Shown: piece after piece, positions 2,589-40,221 of the stretch
Layout: the number at the start of each line of letters is the position of its first letter
How positions within the stretch are numbered: position 1 is the stretch's first letter
From: an uncultured Gemmatimonadota bacterium
GTDB lineage: Bacteria > Gemmatimonadota > CAZMKB01 > CAZNLH01
DNA length: 42,515 bases
Reading direction: 5' to 3'
Assembly (NCBI GenBank): GCA_964442125.1
Contig: CAYTWO010000006.1
Location: 1-42,515 of the forward strand
Program-made: the position numbers and the translations under genes
Notes under the pieces: generated by a model
Databases searched by the model: none
What the model was told of the DNA's origin: nothing
The model's input: the letters and a program-made list of their open reading frames with translations, nothing else

Positions 2589-2589
2589 T

Positions 2590-4487: not shown

Positions 4488-4521
4488 CGCAGAGGACCTC
4501 TCTCAGAAATGAATATCAGGT

Positions 4522-5520
4522 TCATGGTATTTTCCTGAACAACGTATTCGACAATCCAAACTCCAGCACCACGAGGAAGAGGGCAAGTCCGATCCAGCCA
4601 TAGAAAAGCTCCGCGTATTTCCTGTAGACACGTACCTCCATCTCCGTCTTCTCCAGCTCGTCGATCTCGGCATAAATGGCTTCAAGCTTCCTGTTATCGG
4701 TCGCCCGGTAGAACCTGCCTCTCGTCATTGCGGCTACTTTTTTGAGCGTCTCTTCATCTACCTCCACCGGGACGTTCTGATACCGGGTACCAAAGGGGGT
4801 TTGTACCGGATACGGAGCCGTTCCCATCGTTCCCACCCCCACCGTGTAGATCTTTATGCCGTAATTCCGTGCAATCTGTGTGGCGGTAAGCGGATCTATC
4901 TCACCGCGGTTGTTGACACCATCTGTAAGCAGGATCATCACCTTACTTTCAGCCTGGCTATCCTTGAGCCGGTTCACCCCGTTGGCGATGGCCATTCCTA
5001 TCGCGGTACCATCCTCGAGCAGGCCGCTTTTTACCCCGCTCAGCAACTCTTTAAGTACGCGGTAATCCATGGTCAGGGGGCACTGAGTGAAACTTTCTCC
5101 CGCAAAGACAACGAGCCCGATCCGATCGCTGATCCTCCCGTCGACGAATGACGCCGCTACAGATTTGGCCGCACCGATCCGATTGGGCTTGAAATCCTCG
5201 GCAAGCATGCTTCCGGATACGTCGAGAAGGAGCACGATATCTATCCCCTCTGTCGTGATCTCTTCGTCAATCGATACAGACTGTGGTCTGGCCAGGGCGA
5301 TTACGAGCACGCAAAGGGCAACCATGCGAAGTGAAAAGGTGAAATGACGGCCGCGCTCACGCCAGGTCTTCCTGATGTGCTGGAAAGGGGCAAGTGTGGG
5401 ATATCGATATTCACTCGTCCCCCTGTCATGACGCCATATATACCGGAATACGAGTACCGGGACGATCAGGAGGAGATAGAGAAACTCGGGATTCGCAAAG
5501 GTCACGTTATTCTGAAACAT
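4522..5520 (-). CDS. batA: VWA domain protein, BatA-like
   Basis: N-terminal FANPEFLYLLLIVPVLV. VWA MIDAS motif (IVLLLDVSGSM), MILLTDGVNN, and a C-terminal TM segment. Confidence 0.85.
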   Translation of the reverse strand: MFQNNVTFANPEFLYLLLIVPVLVFRYIWRHDRGTSEYRYPTLAPFQHIRKTWRERGRHFTFSLRMVALCVLVIALARPQSVSIDEEITTEGIDIVLLLDVSGSMLAEDFKPNRIGAAKSVAASFVDGRISDRIGLVVFAGESFTQCPLTMDYRVLKELLSGVKSGLLEDGTAIGMAIANGVNRLKDSQAESKVMILLTDGVNNRGEIDPLTATQIARNYGIKIYTVGVGTMGTAPYPVQTPFGTRYQNVPVEVDEETLKKVAAMTRGRFYRATDNRKLEAIYAEIDELEKTEMEVRVYRKYAELFYGWIGLALFLVVLEFGLSNTLFRKIP

Positions 5521-6517
5521 TTACCCTCACCTCCTGATCTTCCTGATCCGCCCGTTCATCTGCGACCTCGGCCGTATTTTCAACAACCGAAAATGCCAGC
5601 CTCAAAGTATCGGTGTTCTCATCGGGCAAGGGCTTGTATCTGGCGAATTTAACCAGGTCTGCCAGATTAAGCATCGATTCGAGATCACTTCTCGTCCCCG
5701 AAGGCATATCTATCGATTCTATATCATCCAGGATTTCATCTGTGGTCAGTTCCAGCGCTTGTATCCCGTACCGGCCATCGAGATATCCGCGAATGACCTC
5801 CGTGACCTCTGAATGGTAAGGCTTGATAAGTCCCTGTTGCCACAAACGTTTCTCCTCTATGATGTCCAACCTCTCTTTCGCGACGATATGAGGAGGTCTT
5901 GTCTCGATCACTTCTACAGGGGTTCGTTTTCTCCTCCCCCGCACTTTCAGGTACCTGAAGAGCAACCATGCAGCGACAATTATCGCGATGACAATGCCGA
6001 CCGGTGTCACCATTTCCTTCCAGGTCAATGCGAGACTCACCGGCTGCTTGATATCCTTGATATCGCGCGTGGTATCGACAGGGATAGAATGGATCACCAG
6101 GTCGATTGGAGAGGTCTCTATCTCCTTAAGAGTGGAGTCGCCCGGGAGGGAGTAAATAAACCTGAAGGGGGGTACGGTTACCTGACCGGTATCATAGGCA
6201 GCTATCCTGAAACCCGCTACCGATTCCTCTGTCGACAACCTGTGAACGGGATCCCTCTTGAGGACCAGTAGAGGACCGAGTGTGTCCCCTGTCAAAGACG
6301 TAAACGATGTCCCCTCCGGATGCTCGAGCCGCACCTCCACGTCGATCCAGTCACCTATCAGGTAGGCCGATGTATCGATCGATGCCTTGGCGGTAACGGG
6401 TCCTGACAAGCAGGAGACATCGGTTGAGTGTACCAGCAGAACCAGCAGGCCAAGCGGGCCGATGCGAACAAGAAATATTTTCAGGATTCGACTGATCTTG
6501 TCGGTAATGGCAACCAT
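5507..6517 (-). CDS. Bat-operon membrane protein of unknown function
   Basis: 336 aa ORF with an N-terminal hydrophobic segment and a central TM (VGIVIAIIVAAWLLF). It lies between the DUF58 and batA genes. No motif was recognised. Confidence 0.45.
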   Translation of the reverse strand: MVAITDKISRILKIFLVRIGPLGLLVLLVHSTDVSCLSGPVTAKASIDTSAYLIGDWIDVEVRLEHPEGTSFTSLTGDTLGPLLVLKRDPVHRLSTEESVAGFRIAAYDTGQVTVPPFRFIYSLPGDSTLKEIETSPIDLVIHSIPVDTTRDIKDIKQPVSLALTWKEMVTPVGIVIAIIVAAWLLFRYLKVRGRRKRTPVEVIETRPPHIVAKERLDIIEEKRLWQQGLIKPYHSEVTEVIRGYLDGRYGIQALELTTDEILDDIESIDMPSGTRSDLESMLNLADLVKFARYKPLPDENTDTLRLAFSVVENTAEVADERADQEDQEVRVNVSE

Positions 6518-6527
6518 ACCTTAATTC

Positions 6528-7406
6528 TCACCCAAGCCGGCGCTCTCGAAGACGGAAAAAATCTATGATCGGCTTGATATAGGGCCTGTCAACCGGGATG
6601 GTGATGTTGTCGATCCGGTTCCGGACCAGCAGCTTCCGGTATTTCCTGCGGTGTTCATTCCAGAATTCCCGGAAACTCTCCCTCACGCTTTCACTGCAGG
6701 TGTCGACCCACCGCTCTTCACTGCTCTCCGCATCGCGCAGTTTGACCAGACCCACTTCCGGCAGTTCCTCCTCCCTGGGATCGATAACCTCGACCGCAAT
6801 CAGGTCATGTTTACGGCTCAGGGTTCCGATAATCTTGTCATATCCCCAGTCCACGAAATCTGATACGAGGAATGCGATACATCTTTTGTTTATGACGTGA
6901 TTGAAGTATTCGAGCGCACCACGGATATCCGTTCCCACTCCTTCCGGCTCGAAGGAGACCAGCTCCCTGATTATGCGGAGGATATGCGCTCTTCCTTTTT
7001 TTGGCGGGACGAATTTTTCGATCCGGTCGGTGAAGAGGATCAATCCAACCTTGTCGTTGTTCTTGATCGCCGAGAACGCCAGCACAGCGCATATCTCGGT
7101 CGCTATTTCGTTCTTGAACTGTCGAACGGTACCGAATTCTCCGGAACGGCTGTAATCGACGATGAGCATAACGGTCAGTTCACGTTCCTCTTCGAAGACC
7201 TTCAGGTAGGGCTGGTCGAACCTCGCCGAAACCTTCCAGTCGATGTTTCTGACATCATCCCCGTACTGGTACTCCCGTACCTCCGAAAAATCGATCCCCA
7301 TCCCCTTGAAGACACTGTGGTACTCACCGGAAAAGACCTGATTTACGAGCCCCCGGGTCTTGAGTTCCACCATCCGGACCTTTTTCAGTATTTCACGTGT
7401 GTCCAT
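6528..7406 (-). CDS. DUF58 domain protein (MoxR-associated)
   Basis: Typical DUF58 N-terminus (VFSGEYHSVFKGMGIDFSEVREYQYGDDVRNIDWKVSAR). It lies immediately downstream of the moxR-type ATPase. Confidence 0.85.
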   Translation of the reverse strand: MDTREILKKVRMVELKTRGLVNQVFSGEYHSVFKGMGIDFSEVREYQYGDDVRNIDWKVSARFDQPYLKVFEEERELTVMLIVDYSRSGEFGTVRQFKNEIATEICAVLAFSAIKNNDKVGLILFTDRIEKFVPPKKGRAHILRIIRELVSFEPEGVGTDIRGALEYFNHVINKRCIAFLVSDFVDWGYDKIIGTLSRKHDLIAVEVIDPREEELPEVGLVKLRDAESSEERWVDTCSESVRESFREFWNEHRRKYRKLLVRNRIDNITIPVDRPYIKPIIDFFRLRERRLG

Positions 7407-7408
7407 TT

Positions 7409-8398
7409 TTAAGGGACTTCGATCTTGTTCAGGATATCGAGGACGAGCTGTTCAGGCGTCACCTCTTCGGCCTCCGCTTCATATGTCAAAGCTACGCGAT
7501 GCCTCAAGACATCCATGCATATTGCCCGGACGTCCTCCGGAATCACGTACCCCCGACGTTTGATGAACGCGAAGGCCTTTGCACCAAGCGCCAGATTGAT
7601 CGACGCGCGCGGTGAGGCGCCGTATTTGATCAGTTGTTTTTGGTCAGGGAGGCCGTACTTCGCCGGTTCTCTGGTGGCGAATACGATGTCGAGGATATAG
7701 CGCTCGATCTTTTCATCCATGTATATCTCCTGGACGACTTCCCGAGCCCGTATAATATCATCGGGTGACGCGACACGATTTGGCGGATCGGGCACCCCGC
7801 CAACGTTCCGGCGGAGTATCTCGAGCTCTTCTTCCTTGCTCGGATAATCGATCTTGACCTTCAGCATGAACCGGTCGATCTGAGCCTCCGGGAGCGGATA
7901 GGTCCCTTCCTGCTCGATCGGATTCTGCGTGGCCAGGACAAGAAACGGATCGGGGAGCAGGTAAGATTCCTCCCCGATCGTCACCTGACGTTCCTGCATA
8001 GACTCCAGGAGGGCGCTCTGCACCTTTGCCGGGGATCGGTTGATCTCATCTGCCAGGATGAAGTTGGCAAAGATCGGCCCTTTCCTGGTCTGGAATGAAC
8101 CGTCCCTGTGATTGTAGATCATCGTTCCGATCAGATCTGCGGGCAGAAGGTCGGGTGTGAACTGGATGCGCTGGAATTTCGCCCGGAATGTCGCGGCAAG
8201 CGAGTGAACGGCAAGTGTCTTTGCCAGTCCCGGGACTCCTTCCAGAAGAATATGCCCATTGGCCAGGAGACCAACCAGGAGCCGCTCGACCATCTCCTTC
8301 TGACCAACAATGACCTTCCCCATCTCCAGAAGGATGGCATCGACAAACGCGCTCTCTTTCTCGATCTTTTTGTTGATTTCTTGAATGTCCGTAGCCAT
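7409..8398 (-). CDS. moxR: MoxR-family AAA+ ATPase
   Basis: Walker A LLEGVPGLAKT and Walker B ILADEINR. Also VLATQNPIEQEGTYPLPEAQIDRF. Confidence 0.9.
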   Translation of the reverse strand: MATDIQEINKKIEKESAFVDAILLEMGKVIVGQKEMVERLLVGLLANGHILLEGVPGLAKTLAVHSLAATFRAKFQRIQFTPDLLPADLIGTMIYNHRDGSFQTRKGPIFANFILADEINRSPAKVQSALLESMQERQVTIGEESYLLPDPFLVLATQNPIEQEGTYPLPEAQIDRFMLKVKIDYPSKEEELEILRRNVGGVPDPPNRVASPDDIIRAREVVQEIYMDEKIERYILDIVFATREPAKYGLPDQKQLIKYGASPRASINLALGAKAFAFIKRRGYVIPEDVRAICMDVLRHRVALTYEAEAEEVTPEQLVLDILNKIEVP

Positions 8399-28313: not shown

Positions 28314-28631
28314 TCACCCTTCCTCGATCACCTCCAGTTTTTTCAGCACCTCTCTTGCTTTAATTGTAATTCTTTCCATCTTTTCCCGTAATTCACGGTT
28401 TTCTCCCTCCAGCCTCTTCAACTCATCATCTCCCTGTCTCTTCTCTAAAGCCTCCTCAAGTCTTTTCACCCTTGTTCTCAGCCTGGTCGTCTCTTCCCTG
28501 GACTGCATCAGTTCGTCCAGAACAAGCCTGACCTCCCGCTCTAATTGATCAAGGATGGTAAGTTGTTTACTTCTGCTTACTGTTTCCTCAGGAATTTTCC
28601 TCCTCCTGTTCCACACCTCATTCAGTATCAA
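28314..28631 (-). CDS. coiled-coil protein, ZapB-like position upstream of zapA
   Basis: The E/R/L heptad-rich sequence is fully helical in character. The start is uncertain, since the ORF overlaps the pheT end by 14 nt. Confidence 0.45.
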   Translation of the reverse strand: MILNEVWNRRRKIPEETVSRSKQLTILDQLEREVRLVLDELMQSREETTRLRTRVKRLEEALEKRQGDDELKRLEGENRELREKMERITIKAREVLKKLEVIEEG

Positions 28632-31035
28632 TTTCAGGCCTAAGTGTCACACTGAATTCTTTCTCTATCTCCTTGGTAACTTTCGCCATTATGCTATCGA
28701 CTTCCTCGTCCTTGAGGGTCTTATCCCTGGACCTGAAGATAAGTGCAAAGGTCAAGGCACTCTTGTCGTCCGGCACCTGAGGTCCCCGATATATGTCATA
28801 TAAGGTGTTGTCTTCTAGTAAATCACCGCAGGTCTGCCGAAAACTTTCTTCCAGATCTGCATGAGTAATCCCCTTTGGGACGAGAAGCGACAGGTCTCGC
28901 TTGATGGAAGGGAACGGAGACATCTCGACGAACCGTTGTTTCCACTCTATCCGATCGAAGAAATGCCCATCGAGCTCGAAGAGGAGTGGTGGATCCTCAA
29001 GGTAAAAAGACTTGAGAAGTGAGGGATGCAGTTCCCCAAAGGATCCAATCTCTTCCCCATCCACCTCGATAGCGACGTGCTTTCCCGGATGAAATGAGTC
29101 CCTTTGGGTCTTTATATATTTCGCACGATGGCACCCCATCCCTCTCAGAAGTGTACTCATAACACCTTTCATGTCATAGTAATCACAACGATCGGGAGAA
29201 CCATCCCTCCAGTGAACAGGGTTTCTTTTCCCCACCATCAATCCTGCAAGGTTGATTGACTCATGCGGGACTTTCTTGTCTTCAACAGCCGGGCCGAATA
29301 CCGTTCCCATCTCAAAAATCCTGAGGTCGGAATTATTCCGGCTTACATTTAGTTTTAACACCCTGAGAAGTCCGGGTAGGAGAGACCGCCTGAGGACTCG
29401 AGCGTCATTGGAGATCGGATTTAGGAGACACCACATATCAGATCGATCCGACTCCGGGAATAGCAGAGATAATTCATCCTCGCTCAGGAATGAGGTCGTA
29501 TAGACCTCACGGAACCCATGAGCAACCAGGTGGGTCTTCAGCAGATCCCTCCTCCAGGACTGCCAGTCAACTCCTGCAATAACCTCCGAACCCGATCCAG
29601 CAGGAACCTCAAACTTGTTATATCCCAATAAACGTGCGATTTCCTCTATCAGATCGACTTCTCTTTTCAAATCCTGACGAAAAGTCTGCACCTCGACATC
29701 GATGAAGTCATCTTTCACACTTGCCGGGAGATCTATACTCTCGAGATACTCGACCATCTGTTCCGTTCCGATCTTCATGCCAAGAAGTTTTTCCACACGC
29801 TCAGGATGAAGGCTGATCGAGACCTTCTTAACCTCCTCTGGATACCTGTCGATCCACCCCGCCATAATCGTCCCACCGGCAATTTCCTGTAGCAATGCAG
29901 TAACCCTGTCGAGGGCAAAGGGCAGAGAGTTGGGATCAACCCACCTTTCGAACCTGTATGAAGCCTGAGAAGGCAAACCAAGCCTTTTTGAAGTCTTACG
30001 AATGCTGAGTGGATCGAAGTGAGCGGCTTCTATCAAGATATCTTTCGTCTCATCGGTGACCTCGGTATCGAGACTTCCCATAATCCCCGCGATGGCCACC
30101 GCTTTGTCGGGATCCGCAATCACGACATCTTCTTCGGTAAGGATTCTTTCTTCCTCGTCCAGGCTGACGATCCTCTCTCCGTTCGAGGCACGCCTTACAA
30201 TTATCTTTCCATCCGTCAGCAAATCCAAATCAAAGGTGTGCAGAGGATGGCCAAGCTCCATCAGGACGTAATTGGCCGCGTCGACGACATTATTAACCGA
30301 TCTCATTCCAACAGACTCTAACCGGCGGGACAACCAGAGGGGTGACGGCCCCACCTTCACTCCCCTGATAACCCTTGCCATATACCTGGGACATCCAACT
30401 GGATCGGCCAGATGCACGTCCGCCAGGGTCTCAATCTCCTCGCCCCCCTCATTCACTTCGTTGCTGGGATACCTCAGGTGATACCCTGTTATGGCTCCAA
30501 TCTCTCTCGCTACACCGATGTGTGAGAGGAGGTCGAACCTGTTTGCTGTCACTTCGATATCGAAAACGTGATCTCCGAGACCCAGTTCATCCACCAGTGA
30601 AGAGCCAACCTTCAGCGTCTTATCCAGTTCAAGGATCGTGTCGCCATCCGATGATATTTCCAGCTCCTTGCCGGAACAAAGCATCCCGTTTGACTCCTCC
30701 CCGCGGATTCTCACTTTTTTGATCTTCGCGCCTCCCGGCAAACGTGATCCAATTGGCGCGAACGGATAAATGCCGCCCTTCACGACGTTTGGAGCACCAC
30801 AAACGACCTGAACGGACACATCTTCCCCCGTATCGACCCGGCAGATGACAAGCTTGTCAGCGTCAGGGTGTTTGCTGACTTCGGTAACTCGAGACACGAC
30901 TATGCCACGGATATCAGGCACAACGTGCTCTATCCCCTCTACCGCCAATCCCTGCATTGTTAAACGATCGGCCAGTTTCTCGAAATCAGCAGGTATGTCG
31001 ATGTAATCACTAAGCCAGTTAAGACTGACCTTCAA
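28618..31035 (-). CDS. pheT: phenylalanine--tRNA ligase beta subunit
   Basis: MKVSLNWLSDYIDI N-terminus. tRNA-binding, B3/4 and B5 regions and a C-terminal FDX-ACB-like region. 805 aa. Confidence 0.95.
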   Translation of the reverse strand: MKVSLNWLSDYIDIPADFEKLADRLTMQGLAVEGIEHVVPDIRGIVVSRVTEVSKHPDADKLVICRVDTGEDVSVQVVCGAPNVVKGGIYPFAPIGSRLPGGAKIKKVRIRGEESNGMLCSGKELEISSDGDTILELDKTLKVGSSLVDELGLGDHVFDIEVTANRFDLLSHIGVAREIGAITGYHLRYPSNEVNEGGEEIETLADVHLADPVGCPRYMARVIRGVKVGPSPLWLSRRLESVGMRSVNNVVDAANYVLMELGHPLHTFDLDLLTDGKIIVRRASNGERIVSLDEEERILTEEDVVIADPDKAVAIAGIMGSLDTEVTDETKDILIEAAHFDPLSIRKTSKRLGLPSQASYRFERWVDPNSLPFALDRVTALLQEIAGGTIMAGWIDRYPEEVKKVSISLHPERVEKLLGMKIGTEQMVEYLESIDLPASVKDDFIDVEVQTFRQDLKREVDLIEEIARLLGYNKFEVPAGSGSEVIAGVDWQSWRRDLLKTHLVAHGFREVYTTSFLSEDELSLLFPESDRSDMWCLLNPISNDARVLRRSLLPGLLRVLKLNVSRNNSDLRIFEMGTVFGPAVEDKKVPHESINLAGLMVGKRNPVHWRDGSPDRCDYYDMKGVMSTLLRGMGCHRAKYIKTQRDSFHPGKHVAIEVDGEEIGSFGELHPSLLKSFYLEDPPLLFELDGHFFDRIEWKQRFVEMSPFPSIKRDLSLLVPKGITHADLEESFRQTCGDLLEDNTLYDIYRGPQVPDDKSALTFALIFRSRDKTLKDEEVDSIMAKVTKEIEKEFSVTLRPEIDTE

Positions 31036-31050
31036 GGTAGAACCCTTTCA

Positions 31051-32076
31051 TCAAAATTGAGAGAGAAACCGGACGTCATTCTCATAAAATGTCCGAATGT
31101 CATTGATACCATATTTTAACATGGCTATCCTTTCGACACCGAGCCCGAAGGCATAGCCGGTATAAAATTCCGAATCGTAACCCACGGCCTCGAAAACAGC
31201 CGGATTGACCATCCCCGCACCTAGTATCTCAAGCCAGCCGGTATTCTTACAAATCCTGCATCCGGATCCATCGCAAAAAATGCATGATATATCGACTTCT
31301 GCGCTCGGTTCCGTAAAGGGGAAGTAGCTCGGCCGGAAACGCGTTCTGACCTCCTGTCCGAAAATCCCCTTCGCAAAAGAATCGAGGCAGCCCTTGAGAT
31401 GAGGAAAGGTGACGTTTTCGTCGACGTATAATCCCTCGACCTGATGAAATACAGGGCTATGAGACGCGTCTGGTGAATCACAACGGAAAACTCTCCCTGG
31501 TACGATTATCCTCACGGGAGGCTGGACCTTCTCCATCACCCTGATCTGCACAGGTGAGGTATGGGTTCGCATGACGACATCTTCGGAAAGATAGAACGTG
31601 TCCTGCATATCCCTGGCAGGATGATCTCTTGGTACGTTAAGTGCTTCGAAGTTATAATAATCGAGTTCGGCTTCAGGTCCCTGTTCTACAGAAAACCCCA
31701 TTCCGTGAAAGATCTCGATGATCTCCCTGAAGACGAGACTGATCGGATGAAAACTCCCCGTCCATGGCTCGACTCCGGGCAGGGTCGTGTCGAGTTCTTC
31801 CTCGCTGAGTTTTCGGTTCAGAGAATCCTCATCGAGAGCCTTCTTTTTCGCCTGCAGGGCATCATTGATTATGCTTTTGGCAGAGTTCGCCTTTTTACCC
31901 GCTTCTGGCCTCTCTTCCAGGGGAACATCTCCAATCTTCTTCACAAACTCCGTGAGCTTCCCCTTGCGCCCGAGATAATCGACACGTAACTTTTCAAGGA
32001 CGTCCTGGCTAGTCGCGCTCTCAATCCTCTGGAGGGCATCGACCTCTAGCTTCTTCAGATATTCAACGCCTTCCAT
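31051..32076 (-). CDS. pheS: phenylalanine--tRNA ligase alpha subunit
   Basis: HPARDMQDTFY, FRPSYFPFTEPSAEVD and GFAFGLGVERIAML-like motifs. Confidence 0.95.
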   Translation of the reverse strand: MEGVEYLKKLEVDALQRIESATSQDVLEKLRVDYLGRKGKLTEFVKKIGDVPLEERPEAGKKANSAKSIINDALQAKKKALDEDSLNRKLSEEELDTTLPGVEPWTGSFHPISLVFREIIEIFHGMGFSVEQGPEAELDYYNFEALNVPRDHPARDMQDTFYLSEDVVMRTHTSPVQIRVMEKVQPPVRIIVPGRVFRCDSPDASHSPVFHQVEGLYVDENVTFPHLKGCLDSFAKGIFGQEVRTRFRPSYFPFTEPSAEVDISCIFCDGSGCRICKNTGWLEILGAGMVNPAVFEAVGYDSEFYTGYAFGLGVERIAMLKYGINDIRTFYENDVRFLSQF

Positions 32077-32081
32077 CTGCT

Positions 32082-32441
32082 TTAAGACTTGAGGTTTTTC
32101 TTGGCTAGCTCGGCCAGGCAGGTAAACTCTTCCGGATGACTCACGGCCAGGTCAGCAAGGAGTTTCCTGTTGATCTCTACGTCAGCCTTCTGGAGTCCCT
32201 CCATGAAACGATTATACGAAAGGCCATTATTCCTGGCAGCGGCGTTGATTCGAACGATCCAGAGCCTACGGAAATCCCTTTTTCTCCGTTTTCTATCCCT
32301 GTAAGCGAAGGCAAGGGCACGATTCACGCTTTCCTTAGCCGTTCGATACAGTTTACTCCTTCCTCCCCTGTAACCCTTTGCCGCTTTAAGTATTTTCTTT
32401 TTCTTCCTGTGTACTGCGGGCCCGCTTGTTATCCTGGGCAT
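32082..32441 (-). CDS. rplT: 50S ribosomal protein L20
   Basis: [15 protein letters not shown]...[23 protein letters not shown]. Confidence 0.95.
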
Positions 32442-32503
32442 CGAAGAACCTCCTTAGGTGTCTCAAAAAGAAACCTGAATCCGATAAAACAAAATAAATA
32501 CTT

Positions 32504-32692
32504 CTATAACATCCGCTTTACCTTTTTCAAATCACTGCCATCGACAAGCTTTCCCTTTCTGAGCTGCCTCTTCCTTTTTCTCGTCTTTTTCGTCAGGATA
32601 TGGCTGTGGTGGGAACTCAACCGCTTGACCTTCCCTTTGGCAGTCAATTTAAAACGCTTCACTGCACCTCGATTGCTTTTTACTTTTGGCAC
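32504..32692 (-). CDS. rpmI: 50S ribosomal protein L35
   Basis: MPKVKSNRGAVKRFKLTAKGKVKR...HILTKK. Confidence 0.95.
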   Translation of the reverse strand: MPKVKSNRGAVKRFKLTAKGKVKRLSSHHSHILTKKTRKRKRQLRKGKLVDGSDLKKVKRML

Positions 32693-32763
32693 CGCGCAAA
32701 AACCTCCTAAATTACTTTAAGTAAACATGCTAACCCTTAAACATACTATCACTTATAAGCCAT

Positions 32764-33282
32764 CTATTGCTTGCGACCCCTCGGACCAATCACCGTCACC
32801 AGGTTCCTTCCCTCTTTTTTGATCGGTGATTCGACAATACCATCCTCCTCTAAATTCTCCACGAATCGTTTCATTAATGCGATCGCGAGATCGGCATGAG
32901 TTATCTCCCTGCCCCTGAACATCAGGGTTACCTTCACTTTGTTGTTTTTAGAGAGAAACTTCCTGGCATGTCGAAGCTTGAATTCAAAATCGTGATCTTC
33001 GATTTTGGGTCGAAGCTTGATCTCCTTCACCTGGATAACATGCTGTTTCTTTTTCGCCCTCTTTGCCTTCTGGCTCTCCTCGTACTTGTATTTGCCGTAA
33101 TCCATTATCCTGCAAACCGGTGGATTTGCCTGCGGGGCGACCTCCACCAGGTCAAGTCCTTCTTCCTCGGCTAGTTCGAGTGCTTTTTCTGTTGGTACAA
33201 TTCCAATCTGTTCGCCATCCGGACCGATCACCCGAATAGGCGATATCCTGATCTGGGTGTTAACTCTCGCTCTTTTTTGAAT
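32764..33282 (-). CDS. infC: translation initiation factor IF-3, AUU start
   Basis: The ORF track begins at GTG 33231, but the frame stays open upstream to a TAA at 33306-33304. ATT at 33282-33280 is preceded by CAGGAGGAGGAAGAG. This gives IQKRARVNTQIRISPIRVIGPDGEQIG, a canonical IF-3 N-terminus. Confidence 0.9.
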   Translation of the reverse strand: MQKRARVNTQIRISPIRVIGPDGEQIGIVPTEKALELAEEEGLDLVEVAPQANPPVCRIMDYGKYKYEESQKAKRAKKKQHVIQVKEIKLRPKIEDHDFEFKLRHARKFLSKNNKVKVTLMFRGREITHADLAIALMKRFVENLEEDGIVESPIKKEGRNLVTVIGPRGRKQ

Positions 33283-33487
33283 CTCTTCCTCCTCCTGAAC
33301 CGGTTAATAGTGACTACCCCTTGAGTGGGGAGTTGCAGCCATATTTTGTGCAGGGTTGGATGATACACGGGCGTGAATCCCGGTATGCAGATCAACCCGC
33401 CAGTACATAAAAAGACCAACCAGGTGAGGGGCTGACATGCCCCTTCTTTGCAGTTGGGGGGAATTCCTCACATGATTTATATAGTAA

Positions 33488-33516
33488 CATATACTGCAAT
33501 AGAGTGGTTGTGTCAA
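33488..33516 (-). promoter_or_regulatory. candidate sigma70 promoter for infC-rpmI-rplT
   Basis: Minus strand TTGACA-17 nt-TATATG, directly after the thrS stop. Confidence 0.4.
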
Positions 33517-35430
33517 TCATTTTCTACTCCTTACTTCTTCCATCATATCCTTGATCAACTTTTCGACCTGCCGTGGACCCATATCCCCCTTCCCCTTCCT
33601 TCTCACCGACACGGTATCTCCTTCCACCTCTCTCGCACCAACGATCAGCATATATGGAATTTTCTGTAATTCGGCCTCTCTTATCTTGAGCCCGATTTTT
33701 TCACTCCGGTCATCTACTTCCACACGAAAATCGTTCTCCTTCAACTTTTCGAGAACCGCCCTTGCATACTCTCTCTGATCGTCTGTGACGGGAATGACCT
33801 TGACCTGCACAGGGCTGAGCCACAATGGAAAATCTCCCCCGTAGTGTTCGATCAAAACCCCGAAAAATCTCTCGAGGGAACCCAAGAGAGCACGATGGAT
33901 CATGATTGGACGATGAGACCCTCCGTCAGAGCCTATGTAACGAATATCGAACTTTTCAGGAAGATTGTAGTCGACCTGTATGGTGGTGCACTGCCAGACA
34001 CGCCGAAGTGCATCGCGGATCTTGATATCGATCTTCGGGCCGTAAAAGACCCCCTCTCCGGGATCGATTTCGTAATCCAGACCGCTGCTTACCAGAGAAT
34101 CCTTCAAGGCTCCGGTCGCCATATCCCAGTTCTCTTCGGTACCAACATATTTTTCCGGTCTCGTGCTCAGATATACCTCATACTCGTCGAAGCCAAACTC
34201 CCGCAGGAAGAAGAGGGTAAAATCGATGAGTCCTTCGATCTCTTCACGAAGTTGATCCGGCCGACAGAATATGTGTGCGTCGTCCTGTGTGAAGCCTCTA
34301 ACACGCTTCATCCCATGAAGGACCCCGGATCTCTCGAACCTGTAGACGGTACCCAACTCCGCCCATCGCAGGGGGAGATCCCGATAACTCTTCATACCGT
34401 CCTTGAAGATGAGAATATGGAAAGGGCAATTCATCGGCTTGATCAGATAATCCCCCTCCTCGAACTCCATTGGCGGATACATGTTCTCCCTGTAGAAATC
34501 AAGGTGCCCGCTCTTCTGCCAGAGAAGACTCCTGGCTACATGAGGGCTGTAGACCAGATCATATCCTCGACGGTAATGGGCTTCTTTCCAGAAATTCTCG
34601 ATGATATTTCTGATAACCGAACCCTTCGGGTGCCAGAAAACCAGACCTGGTCCGGCTTCATCATGAATACTGAAGAGGTCGAGCTGCTTACCGAGGACCC
34701 GGTGGTCCCTCTTTTTTATATCTTCCAACCTGCTCAGATGGTCGTCCAGTTCTTCCTGCACGAAAAAAGAGGTCCCGTAGATACGCTGGAGCATCGGGTT
34801 TTTCTCGTCCCCACGCCAGTAAGCGCCTGCAATAGACGTGAGTTTATATGCACTGATCCGTCCAGTAGAAGGGAGATGAGGTCCTTCGCACAGGTCGATG
34901 AAATCCCCGCACCGGTATATGGAAATGGCCTCACCCTCCGGGATCTCCTTGATCAGTTCCACTTTATAGTTCTCGCCTCTATCCCGGAAAAATTCTATTG
35001 CCTTTTCTCTTTCCCACTCTTCTCGATCGAATCGATAGTCCTGTGATATAATCTCCGCCATCTTCCCCTCGATCGATTCGAGGTCATCAGGGTTAAATGG
35101 TTGCGGTGAGTCGAAGTCATAGTAGAAGCCATCCTCGATCGGAGGACCTATCGTCACCTTTGTGCCGGGAAAAAGGGTCGTTACGGCATAAGCCATGATA
35201 TGAGAGGTGCTGTGCCGTAGAACGTCGAGAGCATCAATATCCTCCGAAGTAATTATCTTAACGTCACAATCCTTGAGCAGAGGACTGCTCAGGTCAACCA
35301 TTCTCTGATCTACCATCGCAACCAATGCGTCTTTTGCCAGTCGTGGGCCAATGTTACCGGCCATTTCCGCCACCGTAGTCCCTCTGGCGATTTCCATAGC
35401 AGAACCATTCGGCAGTTTTACTTTTATCAT
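33517..35430 (-). CDS. thrS: threonine--tRNA ligase
   Basis: MIKVKLPNGS TGS N-terminus and HSTSHIMA editing motif. Class II motifs FRDRGE..., RGFTQDDAHIF and GPKIDI. Anticodon domain present. ATG 35430 preferred; the ORF-track start is 35502. Confidence 0.95.
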   Translation of the reverse strand: MIKVKLPNGSAMEIARGTTVAEMAGNIGPRLAKDALVAMVDQRMVDLSSPLLKDCDVKIITSEDIDALDVLRHSTSHIMAYAVTTLFPGTKVTIGPPIEDGFYYDFDSPQPFNPDDLESIEGKMAEIISQDYRFDREEWEREKAIEFFRDRGENYKVELIKEIPEGEAISIYRCGDFIDLCEGPHLPSTGRISAYKLTSIAGAYWRGDEKNPMLQRIYGTSFFVQEELDDHLSRLEDIKKRDHRVLGKQLDLFSIHDEAGPGLVFWHPKGSVIRNIIENFWKEAHYRRGYDLVYSPHVARSLLWQKSGHLDFYRENMYPPMEFEEGDYLIKPMNCPFHILIFKDGMKSYRDLPLRWAELGTVYRFERSGVLHGMKRVRGFTQDDAHIFCRPDQLREEIEGLIDFTLFFLREFGFDEYEVYLSTRPEKYVGTEENWDMATGALKDSLVSSGLDYEIDPGEGVFYGPKIDIKIRDALRRVWQCTTIQVDYNLPEKFDIRYIGSDGGSHRPIMIHRALLGSLERFFGVLIEHYGGDFPLWLSPVQVKVIPVTDDQREYARAVLEKLKENDFRVEVDDRSEKIGLKIREAELQKIPYMLIVGAREVEGDTVSVRRKGKGDMGPRQVEKLIKDMMEEVRSRK

Positions 35431-35544
35431 CCCGTTACGTGCCTGTTTTATCATTTTTCTTCTCGATCGAAGGTCGATTAAACCTCTGTAGATCGGCTCC
35501 AAGCCCGCTCTATCGGACCGGTGAAGATCTCTTTTATCTGAAAA

Positions 35545-35701: not shown

Positions 35702-36508
35702 ATGAACCTATGGAAAACAACGATGCTCGCAGCCGTGACTCTTGCCCTGGGTTTCATCCTTGGAGGATCACGTGGTGAGGAACCGTATGGGGGTTCAATA
35801 GGTACAACGTTCCACGATGAGACCGAGCTCACTTTCGGCGAAGTTATCTCATCCGTTCTGAGATGGGGTGAGGAACCGAAAAAGGAAAAGTATTATGAAG
35901 GAGCGAGGGTGATCGACCTTCCAGATATGACTGCAGGCGACACAGGTGTCGAAGATGCAATCGCAAAGAGGAGGAGCGCGAGGAATTTCTCCAGGGGTTC
36001 TCTCTCGCTCCCTCAACTCTCCAGACTTCTGTACTCCTCATCGGGTATAACAGGGAAGAGTGGGAAAGATTCCGGTTTCAGAGCGGCACCTTCTGCTGGA
36101 GCGCTCTATCCGATCGAGACCTATGTCGTGGTCTTTGACGTCGACGGAATGGACCCCGGGATATACCATTATGTTCCTTCGAGGCACAAGCTGGAACTCG
36201 TCAGGGAGGGAAATTTCCATAACGATTTTATCTCGGCTGCTCTATATCAGGATATGGCCGGGAGGTGCGACCTGCTCTACGTGCTGACGGCGGTCTTCAG
36301 GAGGGTAACCTGGAAGTATGGCGATAGAGGATATCGTTATGCATATATCGAGGCAGGCGCCATATCCGAGAACATCTATCTTCAGGCGACCTCTCTCGGA
36401 CTGACTTCGGTTCTGATCGGGGCATTCTTCGATGACAAGGTATCAGAATTGATCGGAATCGATGGCAGAAAAGAAGCCCCTATTCTGCTGCACGCGGTGG
36501 GAACTTAG
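35702..36508 (+). CDS. SagB/ThcOx-type (nitroreductase superfamily) dehydrogenase with N-terminal TM/signal anchor
   Basis: RRSARNFS...LSLPQLSRLLYSSSGITG...FRAAPSAGALYPIETYVV...GIYHY.P is the SagB-type dehydrogenase signature. The N-terminus MNLWKTTMLAAVTLALGFILG is hydrophobic. Start at ATG 35702 after GAGGTG. Confidence 0.75.
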   Translation: MNLWKTTMLAAVTLALGFILGGSRGEEPYGGSIGTTFHDETELTFGEVISSVLRWGEEPKKEKYYEGARVIDLPDMTAGDTGVEDAIAKRRSARNFSRGSLSLPQLSRLLYSSSGITGKSGKDSGFRAAPSAGALYPIETYVVVFDVDGMDPGIYHYVPSRHKLELVREGNFHNDFISAALYQDMAGRCDLLYVLTAVFRRVTWKYGDRGYRYAYIEAGAISENIYLQATSLGLTSVLIGAFFDDKVSELIGIDGRKEAPILLHAVGT

Positions 36509-36514
36509 TTTAGT

Positions 36515-36715
36515 ATGAATGATGTCAGATATATTATCAGTTTCCTGTTGATCCTGTTCGTCTTTACAACAGGGATCGCCGGTTTGATCCAGGCGAAACT
36601 CGATCTTCATCACTTCCTCTACCACAGATACCTGGCATATGTTACACTTATTCTGAGTGCTCTCCACGTAGCTCTGAATTTTAAAAAACTATACCGTTAC
36701 CTGACCCGTCGTTAA
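36515..36715 (+). CDS. 66-aa two-TM, His-containing membrane protein
   Basis: Starts 6 nt after the SagB-type stop. Two hydrophobic helices (YIISFLLILFVFTTGIAGLI and YLAYVTLILSALHVALNF) carry H32, H33, H37 and H51. No family recognised. Confidence 0.45.
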   Translation: MNDVRYIISFLLILFVFTTGIAGLIQAKLDLHHFLYHRYLAYVTLILSALHVALNFKKLYRYLTRR

Positions 36716-37008
36716 TCAGGGACGACACAGAGACATTGCCAATCCTGGGAGTAATTGTTACAGCAGTCGAGCCAGCCTGGATACTGGGCGAGCCCCGGGA
36801 CTGAAGCTCCACCCCACCAGCAGATAAAAGCGGCACACAGGGGTAGATCACTGATCCAGGGGCACGGGTCGATGTTTCCGCACTGGCCAGTCTCCCAGCC
36901 GGGTAAAAAAACCATTCCGCAGTCAGAGCAGGCGTAACCGGACACATCCTTCCCACCTGACTTCTCTATACGTTTTGCGCTCCAGTTGATCGGCGTGAGA
37001 TGCTTCAT
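36712..37008 (-). CDS. Cys10/Trp7-rich small protein, paralog 1 (QhpC-like gamma-subunit / rSAM substrate candidate)
   Basis: 98 aa with an ATG start after GAGGGG. By hand alignment, 84/99 aligned positions are identical to paralog 2. All 10 Cys are conserved. Confidence 0.85.
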   Translation of the reverse strand: MKHLTPINWSAKRIEKSGGKDVSGYACSDCGMVFLPGWETGQCGNIDPCPWISDLPLCAAFICWWGGASVPGLAQYPGWLDCCNNYSQDWQCLCVVPD

Positions 37009-37170
37009 AATGAACCCCTCTTTCTGAACTTGAGTCGAGGGGTTTTATCATGAGAGGACTATTACAGGGGGTCTTTCACGAGGGGTTCACTGCGTAGTGT
37101 CACTGTTTACCAGCAGAGCTAACCATCGCTTGACAGATTTTCTATATCTCTTTAACTACATGACCCGTCA

Positions 37171-37323
37171 TCAGTCAGGGACCACGCAGAGACATTGCCA
37201 ATCCTGGGAGTAATTGTTGCAGCAGTCGAGCCGGTTCGGGTACTGGGCAACACCTTGGATCGATGCTCCACCCCAGGAGCAAATGAATGCGGTACATGCC
37301 GCTAGGTCTGCAGTCCAGGGACA
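37171..37323 (-). pseudogene. truncated, leaderless fourth copy of the Cys-rich gene (C-terminal half only)
   Basis: My translation of the minus frame ending at TGA 37173-37171 gives CPWTADLAACTAFICSWGGASIQGVAQYPNRLDCCNNYSQDWQCLCVVPD. Upstream, the frame has no ATG/GTG/TTG and no leader-like sequence before a stop at 37380-37378. Confidence 0.7.
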
Positions 37324-37373
37324 CCGCTCGTGATCTGGTCGACCTTCGAGTCCTTTGCAGGTACTCTTCCGTC

Positions 37374-37673
37374 TCAGTCAGGAACGACGCAGAGACACTG
37401 CCAATCCTGCGAGACATTGTTGCAGCAATCGAGCCAGCCAGGATACTGGGCAACTCCTGGAACCGACGTTCCGCCCCACCAGCAGATAAAAGAAGCACAC
37501 GCCGGGAGGTCTGAGGTCCAGGGACATGGATCGATGTTTCCGCACTGACCGGTCTCCCAGCCGGGTGCAAACATAGTCCCACAATCCGAGCAAGCATACC
37601 CGGACACATCGAGTTTAGATCCGGAACTTTCGATCCTCTTAGCTTTCCAGTTAAGGGGTTTGAGGTGTTTCAC
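37374..37673 (-). CDS. Cys10/Trp7-rich small protein, paralog 2
   Basis: 99 aa with a GTG start after GAAGGAGAG. Confidence 0.85.
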   Translation of the reverse strand: MKHLKPLNWKAKRIESSGSKLDVSGYACSDCGTMFAPGWETGQCGNIDPCPWTSDLPACASFICWWGGTSVPGVAQYPGWLDCCNNVSQDWQCLCVVPD

Positions 37674-37798
37674 TGTTCAACTCTCCTTCTCTATGCGTTT
37701 ATCCTTCTGTCCAGAACTCCCGGACGGATTTGATCACGATTCCCATATACCCGGCACTCACCTTCACAAAGGAGGGGATTTAGTTTACTATCGTGTCT

Positions 37799-38098
37799 CT
37801 AGTCAGGGACAACACAGAGACACTGAAAATCCTGCGAGACATTGTTGCAGCAGTCCATCCAGGCCGGATACTGGTTAATACCGGGGACCGAAGCCCCTGA
37901 CCACCAGCACGATGCCCAGTAGCAAGCGGGCAGATCAGCTGCCCAGGGACACGGGTCGATGTTCCCGCAGGCGCCTGTCTCCCAACCGGGTGCAAAACTC
38001 AATCCGCAGTCCGAGCAGGCATAACCGGACACGTCATTCTTCGAGCCCGAAGTCTCGATTCTTTTTGCCTTCCAATTGAGGGGTTTGAGGTGTTTCAA
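37799..38098 (-). CDS. Cys10/Trp7-rich small protein, paralog 3
   Basis: 99 aa with a TTG start after AAAGGAGAT, 35 nt after the propeller gene stop. 81/99 identical to paralog 2. Confidence 0.85.
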   Translation of the reverse strand: MKHLKPLNWKAKRIETSGSKNDVSGYACSDCGLSFAPGWETGACGNIDPCPWAADLPACYWASCWWSGASVPGINQYPAWMDCCNNVSQDFQCLCVVPD

Positions 38099-38133: not shown

Positions 38134-39180
38134 TCATGAACCCGCGCGCGCTGCTTGGTCTTCTGTGTCCTCAACAAGATTATCCCGTACGGCAATCACG
38201 TTCAGTGGCGTCGGGACTTTGACCTCCCTGATCAGATTTCCCTGGGTGTCGACACATGTGATTTGACCCTCATCCTCTCCGGTGTCGGCCGAAAGGTAGA
38301 TCATATCCGCTTTACCGTTCAATGTGATCCACCTGTGTTTGACTCCGAGATCCGTTCTCGAGATCTCCTCCCCATTCGAATCCATGATAACCAGTTCTGT
38401 CAAGCCATTGGCGAAGATTCTCGATCCATCTGGAGAGGTTACCATGCCCTGTATCTTGACCTTTTCATCCAGGCAGGTCCTCTTCTTCTCTCCGGTATCT
38501 GGAAAATAGTGCCAGACACATGTTGGATTATTTTCGCCCTGCTCCAGAAGATAGAAGTCTGAACCACCCCCGGAAAAAGCGATATGGCGGAGGATCACCA
38601 TGCGTCCTTCCCACTGCCCGCCTTCTCCGAACCATAACTTCTCTGAACCCGCAAAATCATCTGTTGGGACCTTCATAACTTCTCTGCCAGCCATATGGGT
38701 GACGTAGATATTGTCTCCAGAAGGATCCAGGAAGATCTCGTACGTCCATGGTTCGAGGTAAAAATCTTCGAGTTGACTGTAGTCACCTCCCGACAGCTTG
38801 AGGATCTTATGGGGTCCGTTCGACATGTCCGGTCTGTCTCCAGGATGATGCAGGACATAGATCTGGTCTCTCGTTCCTTCATACCTTACCGAATCGAGAA
38901 TGCCGAGCGGAACCGTCTGAACAATCTCCATGATGGAGGTGTCCACGACGAGTAGCCCCCGTGTCGTCGCGAGAAAGAGTCTGCCATCTTCCGCCAGTTC
39001 CAGGCCATTTATCTGCGCCCCAACGGAGACCTTCTCGACGATCTCCCCCGAACCCATATCTATCACGAAGAGATCGTTCCATCCTGCGTAAACAATATCG
39101 CCTGATCCCCCGTGACGTGAACAGCCGGGAAGGAACATGATAGGAAGCAGCAAAATAAGAGCCGACTTAAATCTCCACAT
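38134..39180 (-). CDS. beta-propeller lipoprotein (YVTN-type repeats), QhpB-sized
   Basis: Lipobox MFLPGC at the N-terminus. Repeated ~40-aa blade-like units (DGRLFLATTRGLLVVD, GDNIYVTHMAG, DGSRIFANGLTELVIMD). 348 aa. Confidence 0.7.
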   Translation of the reverse strand: MWRFKSALILLLPIMFLPGCSRHGGSGDIVYAGWNDLFVIDMGSGEIVEKVSVGAQINGLELAEDGRLFLATTRGLLVVDTSIMEIVQTVPLGILDSVRYEGTRDQIYVLHHPGDRPDMSNGPHKILKLSGGDYSQLEDFYLEPWTYEIFLDPSGDNIYVTHMAGREVMKVPTDDFAGSEKLWFGEGGQWEGRMVILRHIAFSGGGSDFYLLEQGENNPTCVWHYFPDTGEKKRTCLDEKVKIQGMVTSPDGSRIFANGLTELVIMDSNGEEISRTDLGVKHRWITLNGKADMIYLSADTGEDEGQITCVDTQGNLIREVKVPTPLNVIAVRDNLVEDTEDQAARAGS

Positions 39181-39198: not shown

Positions 39199-40221
39199 CT
39201 AATGGCCTACCGCGATGGTAAACGGAGACGCGTCCGGAACGAGGATCCTGTATAGAGGAGCGAGCGTTTTCGCGTTAAATATGGCCATGCTTCCGCCCGT
39301 ATCATAAACAGGATTGATCAGATAGAGTTTCTCGCCTCTATCACCGATTTCCATACCCTGGTAAGGTACATCAAGCGGTACCCAGCTGATCTCGGCTTCC
39401 TTTTCGAGATCGATGACAGACAGGAATCTGACCGCGTTCAGGTAGAGCTTTTTCCCGTCAGGGGAAAGGACCCCTCCACGCCACTTTGCTTCGTGATCCA
39501 GCGCAATCCTCCTCACGCTGTTTGTGGTCGTTTCGACAACCAGCACACCCGCCTGGTTTCCACCCTGCGCGATATAAATCTTGTTACTGTCTTTATCGCG
39601 GATCATCCGCCACAACATTCCCTGGTTCTGGTCTTTATGCTCGTACCCATAATCTCCAAGATCAAGGGTCTCGATCTGAGCACCGGACGTCAACTGAACG
39701 ATCTTCAGCTCGCTGTCGAGCAGGTCGAGGCAGTACAGGCGATCCTGCTCCGGGACGATTTCGATGTCGAACACCATCCGGTTCAGCTCGATCGTCCTCA
39801 ACAGTGTCTTACTGCTCAGGTCGTAGACCAGAAGTTTCGAGGGGAAGGCCTCAGCGGTTCCATCAGGCATCACTTTCCGGTCGTTCGTGAGGACGAACAT
39901 CCGGTTGCTTTCCTTCTCGATCTCAACCGTAAAAGCCGGCTTGTCCATCAAAAGTCCCTGGATCGTTCTCGTCTCGACATCGATGATATTGACCCCGTTG
40001 GATGCTCCGGCATAAACAGTTTTTCCGTCCGGAGAAACTGAAATGTTGTAGATCCACCTGTCGATCGGGATCTCCCCGGCTATCTTCCCGCTTTCCTCAT
40101 CGAGCACATAAAGTGTCGTGGCTCCCACGTACACTTCCGCTCCGTGAAGGTAAGTGGACTGGGCGAAGAACCCAGCGAGGGCAAGGGCAATCAACAATAT
40201 ACTGGCTATTTTCATCTTCAC
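39199..40221 (-). CDS. secreted beta-propeller protein (YVTN-type repeats), QhpB-sized
   Basis: Sec signal MKMKIASILLIALALAGFFAQS. Blade motifs VSPDGKTVYAGASNGVNIIDV, DSNKIYIAQGG and LSPDGKKLYLNA. 340 aa. Confidence 0.7.
   Translation of the reverse strand: MKMKIASILLIALALAGFFAQSTYLHGAEVYVGATTLYVLDEESGKIAGEIPIDRWIYNISVSPDGKTVYAGASNGVNIIDVETRTIQGLLMDKPAFTVEIEKESNRMFVLTNDRKVMPDGTAEAFPSKLLVYDLSSKTLLRTIELNRMVFDIEIVPEQDRLYCLDLLDSELKIVQLTSGAQIETLDLGDYGYEHKDQNQGMLWRMIRDKDSNKIYIAQGGNQAGVLVVETTTNSVRRIALDHEAKWRGGVLSPDGKKLYLNAVRFLSVIDLEKEAEISWVPLDVPYQGMEIGDRGEKLYLINPVYDTGGSMAIFNAKTLAPLYRILVPDASPFTIAVGH

Follow-up and report, generated by a model that had tools for sequence, protein, structure and literature searches.

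Tandem genes for probable QhpC-family gamma-subunit precursors in a qhp-like operon of an uncultured Gemmatimonadota bacterium

A 42,515-nt stretch of DNA from an uncultured Gemmatimonadota bacterium (contig CAYTWO010000006.1 of assembly GCA_964442125.1; the whole stretch is called the window here) carries a tandem array of three intact genes, P1, P2 and P3, for paralogous Cys-rich proteins. We consider it probable that these proteins are precursors of QhpC-family gamma subunits, the small catalytic subunits of quinohemoprotein amine dehydrogenase (QHNDH), and that they are matured by the radical S-adenosylmethionine (rSAM) enzyme of the same operon. An earlier reading of the DNA without database searches (the sequence-only reading) had treated the genes as an unclassified family. 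That view did not survive the profile and structure searches, which placed them among the gamma precursors of a qhp-like operon. The profile scores sit at the threshold, and the array is therefore a divergent branch of the QhpC family.

In QHNDH's gamma subunit, Cys7, Cys27 and Cys41 form thioethers to Asp or Glu, and Cys37 and Trp43 together make cysteine tryptophylquinone (CTQ); a catalytic role has been suggested for Asp33 (PMC7876137, PMC11951088). In the canonical pathway the precursor has a 28-residue leader, QhpD makes the thioethers, QhpE performs the cleavage, QhpF the export and QhpG the hydroxylation (PMC7876137).

The family model NF037958 (QH_gamma) aligned with residues 1-97 of the array proteins and gave 41.5, 51.7 and 51.6 bits for P1, P2 and P3, respectively (cutoff 50). 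The scores against PF08992 were 16.8, 21.6 and 24.7 bits in the same order (gathering threshold, GA, 25). When P2 was compared with the PDB by phmmer, only the solved gamma chains matched (1JJU_C, E 3.3e-7; 1JMX_G, E 6.7e-4).

The alignment with QHNDH gamma (1JJU_C) placed Cys7, Glu16, Cys27, Asp33, Cys37, Cys41 and Trp43 at C30, E39, C49, D54, C59, C64 and W66 of P2. All seven residues were invariant in 13 family members. Two of the three thioether pairs (C30-E39 and C49-D54) were kept, and the equivalents of the cofactor residues Cys37 and Trp43 and of the active-site Asp33 were present (C59, W66 and D54). The spacing from the cofactor Cys to the Trp was +7 in P2 versus +6 in QHNDH gamma.

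The array belongs to an operon headed by the rSAM gene (Table 1). The best of 80 families for the rSAM protein was TIGR03906 (quino_hemo_SAM, 388 bits), followed by PapB (309 bits); it scored 294 bits to the SCIFF maturase. The protein carries CX3CX2C and CX2CX5CX3C motifs. The 173-aa secreted protein resembled domain IV of the QHNDH alpha subunit only, and scored 19.7 bits against TIGR03908 (cutoff 274). Against the PDB, the propeller beta1 matched the QHNDH beta chains 1JMX_B (E 5e-5) and 1JJU_B (E 2e-4); its identity to the second propeller, beta2, was only about 20%. No CXXCH heme motif was found in the rSAM protein, the 173-aa protein, beta1 or beta2.

The family is rare. Close matches numbered five among 5.8 billion proteins, one of them P3 of the window itself, and a profile search of 1.84 billion representatives returned 29 clusters with E < 1e-3 for the whole superfamily. 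A first metagenome scan (alignment A1) gave no match; a scan with a broader alignment (A2) gave seven loci at 46-49% identity. The order rSAM, alpha-domain-IV-like (alphaIV) gene, beta1, beta2, gamma was kept in L001, L002, L005 (a metagenome-assembled genome, MAG, of Candidatus Glassbacteria) and L006 (a Gemmatimonadota MAG), each with a beta2 ortholog and none with a diheme alpha gene upstream of the rSAM gene. Every locus with context encoded two propellers and an alphaIV protein. CXXCH was also absent from the alphaIV homologs of L005 and L006 (313-319 aa). Gamma copies numbered one in L002, L004 and L006 and two in L001 and L005; the window has three and a remnant.

Table 1. Gamma array, operon genes and adjoining genes in the window
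Feature	Positions	Strand	Remarks
P1, QhpC-like gamma-subunit precursor (putative)	36712-37008	minus	ATG start, 98 aa, class-A loop C-AAFI-C; last array gene
R, remnant of a fourth gamma gene, truncated at its 5' end	37174-37326	minus	C-terminal 51 codons (RCPW...CLCVVPD), then two stop codons
P2, QhpC-like gamma-subunit precursor (putative)	37374-37673	minus	GTG start, 99 aa, class-A loop C-ASFI-C
P3, QhpC-like gamma-subunit precursor (putative)	37799-38098	minus	TTG start, 99 aa, class-B loop C-YWAS-C
beta2, 348-aa beta-propeller with lipoprotein-type signal (...FLPGC)	38134-39180	minus	weak YncE/PQQ-type propeller matches
beta1, distant QhpB (QHNDH beta) relative, 340-aa beta-propeller with signal peptide	39199-40221	minus	TIGR03907 QH_beta 46.7 bits, E 2e-12 (cutoff 223)
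Alpha-domain-IV-like secreted protein, 173 aa	40249-40770	minus	PF09100 Qn_am_d_aIV 25.9 bits (GA 25)
QhpD-like radical SAM/SPASM peptide maturase, 471 aa	40887-42302	minus	first operon gene; TIGR03906 388 bits (cutoff 453)
66-aa two-helix membrane protein, four conserved His	36515-36715	plus	convergent with P1, 4-nt stop overlap; weak DUF4405/ferric-reductase-TM matches only
SagB-type nitroreductase-fold dehydrogenase, N-terminal membrane anchor or signal	35702-36508	plus	TIGR03605 155 bits (cutoff 78), PF00881 89.5 bits

The three open reading frames (ORFs) were as the sequence-only reading had described them in position and length, on the minus strand. With the start codon counted as Met, the proteins were identical at 84/98 positions with one gap (P1/P2), 81/99 (P2/P3) and 75/98 (P1/P3); recomputation thus returned the previous counts for the first two pairs (84 identical with one gap, and 81/99). 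All three copies contain 10 Cys and 7 Trp apiece, and no Cys column varied in the alignment, which upheld the constrained Cys framework. In the coding DNA for DVSGYACSDCG, 3-7 of 33 nt differed among the copies, and every change was synonymous; the three DNA strings quoted for this block were exact.

The dN/dS check that had been called for was run by the method of Nei and Gojobori. The proportion of synonymous differences (pS) was 0.57-0.75, which is saturated, against a proportion of nonsynonymous differences (pN) of 0.11-0.19, with omega about 0.03-0.2. The DNA identity among the copies was 73-76%. The saturated pS and low pN showed that P1, P2 and P3 are old paralogs under strong purifying selection, as the sequence-only reading had held.

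The NF037958 alignment began at residue 1 of P1, P2 and P3, so that their leader was aligned with that of QhpC precursors, and mature residue 1 of 1JJU_C mapped to about residue 25 of P2. The leader therefore corresponds to the 28-residue QhpC leader, on which QhpD relies and which QhpE cleaves off, and its removal before export is predicted. It has no hydrophobic stretch and no Sec/Tat signal. It also resembled the leader of TIGR04118, a family of rSAM-modified RiPPs (peptides made on the ribosome that are modified after translation), with E 3e-6. The hydrophilic leader proposed before is thus a genuine one, but it is about as variable as the average of the protein: 6/27 of its positions vary among P1, P2 and P3, versus 19/72 elsewhere.

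The leaders are genome-specific, and for that reason a tree of the full-length proteins grouped P1, P2 and P3 together. Recent gene conversion was considered as the source of the leader similarity and rejected, because the synonymous sites of the P2 and P3 leaders are saturated (pS 0.87). The similarity reflects selection instead, most simply recognition by one maturase.

A tblastn search with the L006 gamma protein (E 7e-11) revealed a fourth, truncated copy, the remnant R, which had been overlooked when the array was described as three copies; that number is right for the intact genes. R has neither a start codon nor a Shine-Dalgarno (SD) sequence, and it directly adjoins the stop codon of P2. 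Read-through or frameshifting from P2 into R was considered and rejected, as R lies in another frame and has no start codon or SD. It was therefore treated as a pseudogene fragment. R shared 39/51 aa with P1 and as many with P2 (pS about 0.6, pN about 0.13). Since pN was well under pS against the intact copies, R was probably functional for most of its past. About 14 nt past the P1 stop codon, where the convergent 66-aa gene has its 3' end, are repeated in the 3' flank of R.

The three intact genes use three start codons (ATG, GTG and TTG), each behind an SD (GAGGGG for P1, AAGGAG for P2 and P3), as had been noted. Graded translation had been suggested from this. On the other hand, TTG or GTG started 9/11 gamma genes in seven loci, behind an AAGGAGG-type SD, and the use of such starts is not specific to the array, so that the suggestion was not sustained. 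A non-ATG start is a family trait, and P1, with ATG and a weaker SD, is the exception.

An 8-bp hairpin at 37009-37050 on the minus strand (AACCCCUC...GAGGGGUU) pairs with the P1 SD and can occlude it. The intergenic RNA folded no better than shuffled sequences (z = 0.94, -1.38 and 0.12; about -1.4 for the whole spacer that contains the hairpin), and the hairpin alone stood out. No terminator-like site was found on the minus strand between the gamma copies.

The largest difference between the paralogs lay in the four residues between C59 and C64, which read AAFI in P1, ASFI in P2 and YWAS in P3; residues that flank the loop differed as well. This loop falls between the residues aligned to the cofactor Cys37 and Trp43, and it is for this position plausibly a specificity region. 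The sequence-only reading had proposed a central hypervariable specificity region, with substitutions concentrated at residues 53-81. That segment does hold 13/25 variable sites (Fisher p = 0.005 for the chosen segment), but the concentration is modest, with p = 0.085 when its post-hoc choice is allowed for. The stretch C59-x4-C64 was the most variable one. A diversified centre is not general among such arrays, as the two copies of L001 were identical at 69/72 core positions.

Two classes of loop were found. P1, P2, L004, the two L001 copies and the remnant had A-[AS]-F-[IV], and P3, L002, L005 and L006 had aromatic-x-A-[SAT]. In a tree of the cores only, P1 and P2 grouped with L001 and L004 (bootstrap 0.86) and P3 fell outside, and the support for monophyly of P1, P2 and P3 was only 0.04. 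P3 belongs to a different and older isoform class than P1 and P2, and the array unites two old classes. The differences between isoforms may tune the substrate pocket or the redox properties, a possibility that we put forward tentatively.

An alternative is that the copies provide only dosage or regulatory redundancy, the cell requiring a surplus of the small subunit or requiring it under differing conditions, and that their differences are neutral drift. The L001 copies agree with this, as their cores remained nearly identical despite a pS of 0.55, whereas their leaders diverged; at least in L001 this points to dosage or regulation more than to specificity. Only 9/74 core positions differ between P1 and P2, the clustering of changes is marginal after the correction for the choice of segment, and decay has already reduced one copy to a remnant. 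On the other hand, all four loop residues beside the cofactor site differ in P3, and both loop classes recur across genomes (L002, L005 and L006; L001 and L004), which argues against neutral drift. We regard redundancy as the sole explanation as somewhat unlikely, and dosage or regulation may also matter for the gamma copy number.

A second alternative is that the genes encode free, secreted rSAM-modified RiPPs of the ranthipeptide/SCIFF type, with several variable cores, and not enzyme subunits. The scores of the rSAM protein to PapB and the SCIFF maturase and the match to the TIGR04118 leader are in line with this. Several precursor genes with a common leader are typical of RiPP clusters, and a SagB-type dehydrogenase adjoins the array. 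Against these stands the homology to QhpC, which spans the whole 75-aa core with the cofactor Cys and Trp and the catalytic Asp. The long core is under very strong purifying selection, two propellers and an alphaIV protein accompany it in every locus with context, and the SagB-like gene is missing from L001, L005 and L006. We consider free RiPP products quite improbable.

The last alternative, decaying duplicates or an assembly artefact with at most one functional gene, might be taken from the truncated remnant and from P2 being uncalled in the public record, but it is refuted for practical purposes: all three full copies keep intact ORFs, SDs and 10 Cys, pN/pS is far under 1, a DNA identity of 73-76% excludes collapsed or duplicated reads, and L007 (JGI 3300002231), a separately recorded contig with an overall identity of 99.64%, has zero differences across the array, which is therefore not an assembly artefact. 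In L007:4639-5073 (window 37175-37609, minus), the public JGI annotation covers P2 and the remnant with a 144-aa ORF in the wrong frame. For this reason P2 is missing from the protein databases and was not returned by the homolog search.

Several observations weigh against the assignment of the array to the QhpC-type gamma precursors. The score of P1 against NF037958 and all the PF08992 scores were under the curated cutoffs, and those of the rSAM protein and beta1 were under the equivalog cutoffs. The diheme alpha subunit, QhpE, QhpF and QhpG were found neither in the window nor in the 20 kb that surround the closest relative, L001; tblastn with the S8 protease, ATP-binding cassette (ABC) and U32 proteins of L006 also gave no match in the window or L001. 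An AlphaFold2 model of P2 from a 7-sequence alignment was unusable (predicted local distance difference test, pLDDT, 33.8), and the position of the loop relative to the cofactor is therefore taken from the sequence alignment alone. The near-identical cores of L001 weigh against functionally distinct isoforms. Asp49, the acceptor of the third thioether, aligned to a Pro (P72) that is invariant in this clade, with Cys41 kept as C64; the more distant relatives P0005, P0006 and P0008 retain the QVPD motif. The cross-link pattern can therefore not be canonical. Finally, the copies have six Cys more than canonical QhpC (C27, C44, C83, C84, C93 and C95).

Some of these extra Cys may form links of their own. 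C83 and C93 were lost jointly in L006 and in the more distant relative P0005, and this joint loss hints that the two are paired. C84 and D90 (C-x5-D) have the spacing of a QhpD-type link and could form a new thioether.

A Cys equivalent to C84 was also seen in many superfamily members that have no later Cys. P0013, P0014, P0016, P0017, P0019, P0022 and P0027 have a fifth Cys in a C-terminal C-x5/6-D-W motif and no later Cys partner; the solved proteins of P. denitrificans and P. putida do not have this fifth Cys. A fourth thioether in parts of the QhpC superfamily is a possibility.

For the QhpC-type gamma precursors that we favor, we infer the following route. Each copy would be synthesized cytoplasmically as a precursor that has a leader of about 24 residues and lacks a signal peptide, and the leader would dock the precursor on the single QhpD-like rSAM/SPASM enzyme. 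This enzyme would install the Cys-to-Glu/Asp thioethers C30-E39 and C49-D54. Hydroxylation of W66 and its cross-linking to C59 would yield a CTQ-type cofactor, with D54 as the active-site acid/base. The leader would then be cut off, and the knotted peptide exported to assemble with the secreted propellers and the small alphaIV protein. The predicted product is a periplasmic quinoprotein dehydrogenase related to QHNDH, of which P1, P2 and P3 would be isoforms of the small catalytic subunit. Passage of all copies through the same maturase would hold the leader and the cross-link framework fixed within the genome.

Other maturation genes were found in relatives. In the distant relatives L005, L006 and L008, the cluster is adjoined by genes for an ABC exporter and a QhpE-like S8 protease (136.7 bits in L006), and L009 has an ABC match and a separate S8 match. 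In L005:93-4595, L006:540-5082, L008:5171-9545 and L010:6294-8711, the rSAM, gamma and beta genes lie next to genes for a protein of about 308 aa and a Peptidase_U32 protein; the L010 contig ends inside the U32 gene. The best NCBIfam matches of the U32 protein were UbiU (59.8 bits) and TrhP (52.3 bits); the motifs C-x6-C-x12-C and CGLC are invariant in it. The 308-aa protein matched a UbiV-like U32 partner by a weak profile match only (hhalign probability 24%, E 8.5e-4). No QhpG-type flavin monooxygenase was found in these four clusters.

U32 enzymes are O2-independent hydroxylases (PMC6747719, PMC10990095). Together with the presence of U32 proteins and the absence of the QhpG type, this suggests an anaerobic, O2-independent route of Trp hydroxylation to the quinone in the U32-bearing relatives. 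This is a lead from the relatives and not a finding in the window. A literature search returned no paper linking tryptophylquinone with U32 proteins.

Downstream of the array, the SagB-type gene is co-transcribed with the 66-aa gene. The two genes adjoin gamma also in L002 and L004, where the stop of the 66-aa gene again overlaps that of the last gamma gene by 4 nt, tail to tail, and are absent from L001, L005 and L006. The pair may serve the heme-less enzyme as an outlet for electrons or as an oxidase in its maturation.

A housekeeping block adjoins the cluster at 28618-35502 on the minus strand, with thrS (33517-35502) and ORFs at 32764-33231, 32082-32441, 31051-32076 and 28618-31035. In L007, the ORFs after thrS are annotated as infC, rplT, pheS and pheT, with rpmI between. 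This synteny extends to L001, where thrS also comes after the gamma array. A complete Bat/MoxR-type operon at 756-8398 (minus) is unrelated to the gamma array; it encodes a MoxR AAA ATPase, a DUF58 protein, an unassigned 336-aa ORF, a TPR protein, BatD and two BatA/VWA proteins.

QHNDH is a textbook case of an enzyme subunit that is built in the manner of a RiPP, with a leader, radical-SAM thioethers and a protein-derived quinone. To our knowledge, all characterised examples of QHNDH combine a single gamma gene with a diheme alpha subunit and an O2-dependent hydroxylase. The QhpC family is known, and the heme-less, two-propeller variant with rewired Cys and several gamma copies was not described in the literature searched, which gave no paper on multi-copy qhpC or on a heme-less qhp cluster.

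The relatives of the array lie in Candidatus Glassbacteria and Gemmatimonadota MAGs. A wider proposal is that they and the array represent an undescribed heme-less branch of tryptophylquinone dehydrogenases in uncultured FCB-type bacteria, with three parts. One scaffold (two propellers and alphaIV) and one maturase would serve interchangeable gammas of two ancient classes. The third thioether would have been lost, and the six new Cys would form disulfides, new thioethers (C84-D90) or a metal site that replaces the heme electron relay. A U32-family (UbiU/TrhP-like) enzyme would take the place of the O2-dependent flavoprotein QhpG and hydroxylate the Trp without O2. That all three parts hold together we regard as unlikely.

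A branch without the hemes, with rewired cross-links and with up to three diverged gamma genes for one maturase would be a natural experiment on maturase recognition, in which the leader is fixed within a genome and the core is swapped. It would also suggest a modular "cofactor-subunit swapping" as a route to dehydrogenase diversity, and the U32 genes of the relatives would offer a testable path to anaerobic tryptophylquinone biogenesis.

Compared with QHNDH and QhpC (1JJU_C, 1JMX_G; qhpADCBEFG), the array shares a small precursor that carries a leader of about 24-28 aa and no signal peptide. The operon shares a QhpD-like rSAM/SPASM protein, a QhpB-like propeller and a QhpA-domain-IV-like protein, whereas QhpE-like and QhpF-like genes occur only in the more distant clade members L005, L006 and L008. 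In place of the diheme c-type alpha subunit (QhpA, about 60 kDa) the window has the 173-aa domain-IV-like protein without CXXCH, and in place of the single QhpB two propeller paralogs. The gamma copies differ from QhpC by the Pro at the position of the acceptor Asp49, by the six additional invariant Cys, by one more residue in the interval from the cofactor Cys to the Cys that follows it and by one less between Cys27 and Asp33. This branch has 1-3 tandem gamma genes (and one remnant). QhpG was not seen, and a U32-family protein is in its place in L005, L006, L008 and L010.

Tryptophan tryptophylquinone (TTQ) enzymes, the methylamine and aromatic amine dehydrogenases, consist of a subunit of the seven-bladed-propeller type and a small Cys-rich subunit that bears the quinone, and pass their electrons to an external acceptor. 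The likeness to the window is in this architecture only (a heme-less propeller and a small Cys-rich subunit): in searches of Pfam, NCBIfam and the PDB, the gamma copies gave no sequence match to TTQ light subunits. Unlike the latter, the small subunit of the window has no signal peptide, and its maturation would be by an rSAM enzyme and not by MauG.

The ranthipeptide, SCIFF and CXXX-repeat RiPPs (PapB, ScfB, TIGR04115/TIGR04118) have a maturase homologous to that of the window (309 and 294 bits). The leader motif of the window, MKHLKPLN.KAKRIE, resembles that of TIGR04118 precursors, and several precursors are present per maturase. On the other hand, the window has no bacteriocin-type export or immunity set; its core is about 75 aa long and homologous to an enzyme subunit, and the propeller and alphaIV partners are always present.

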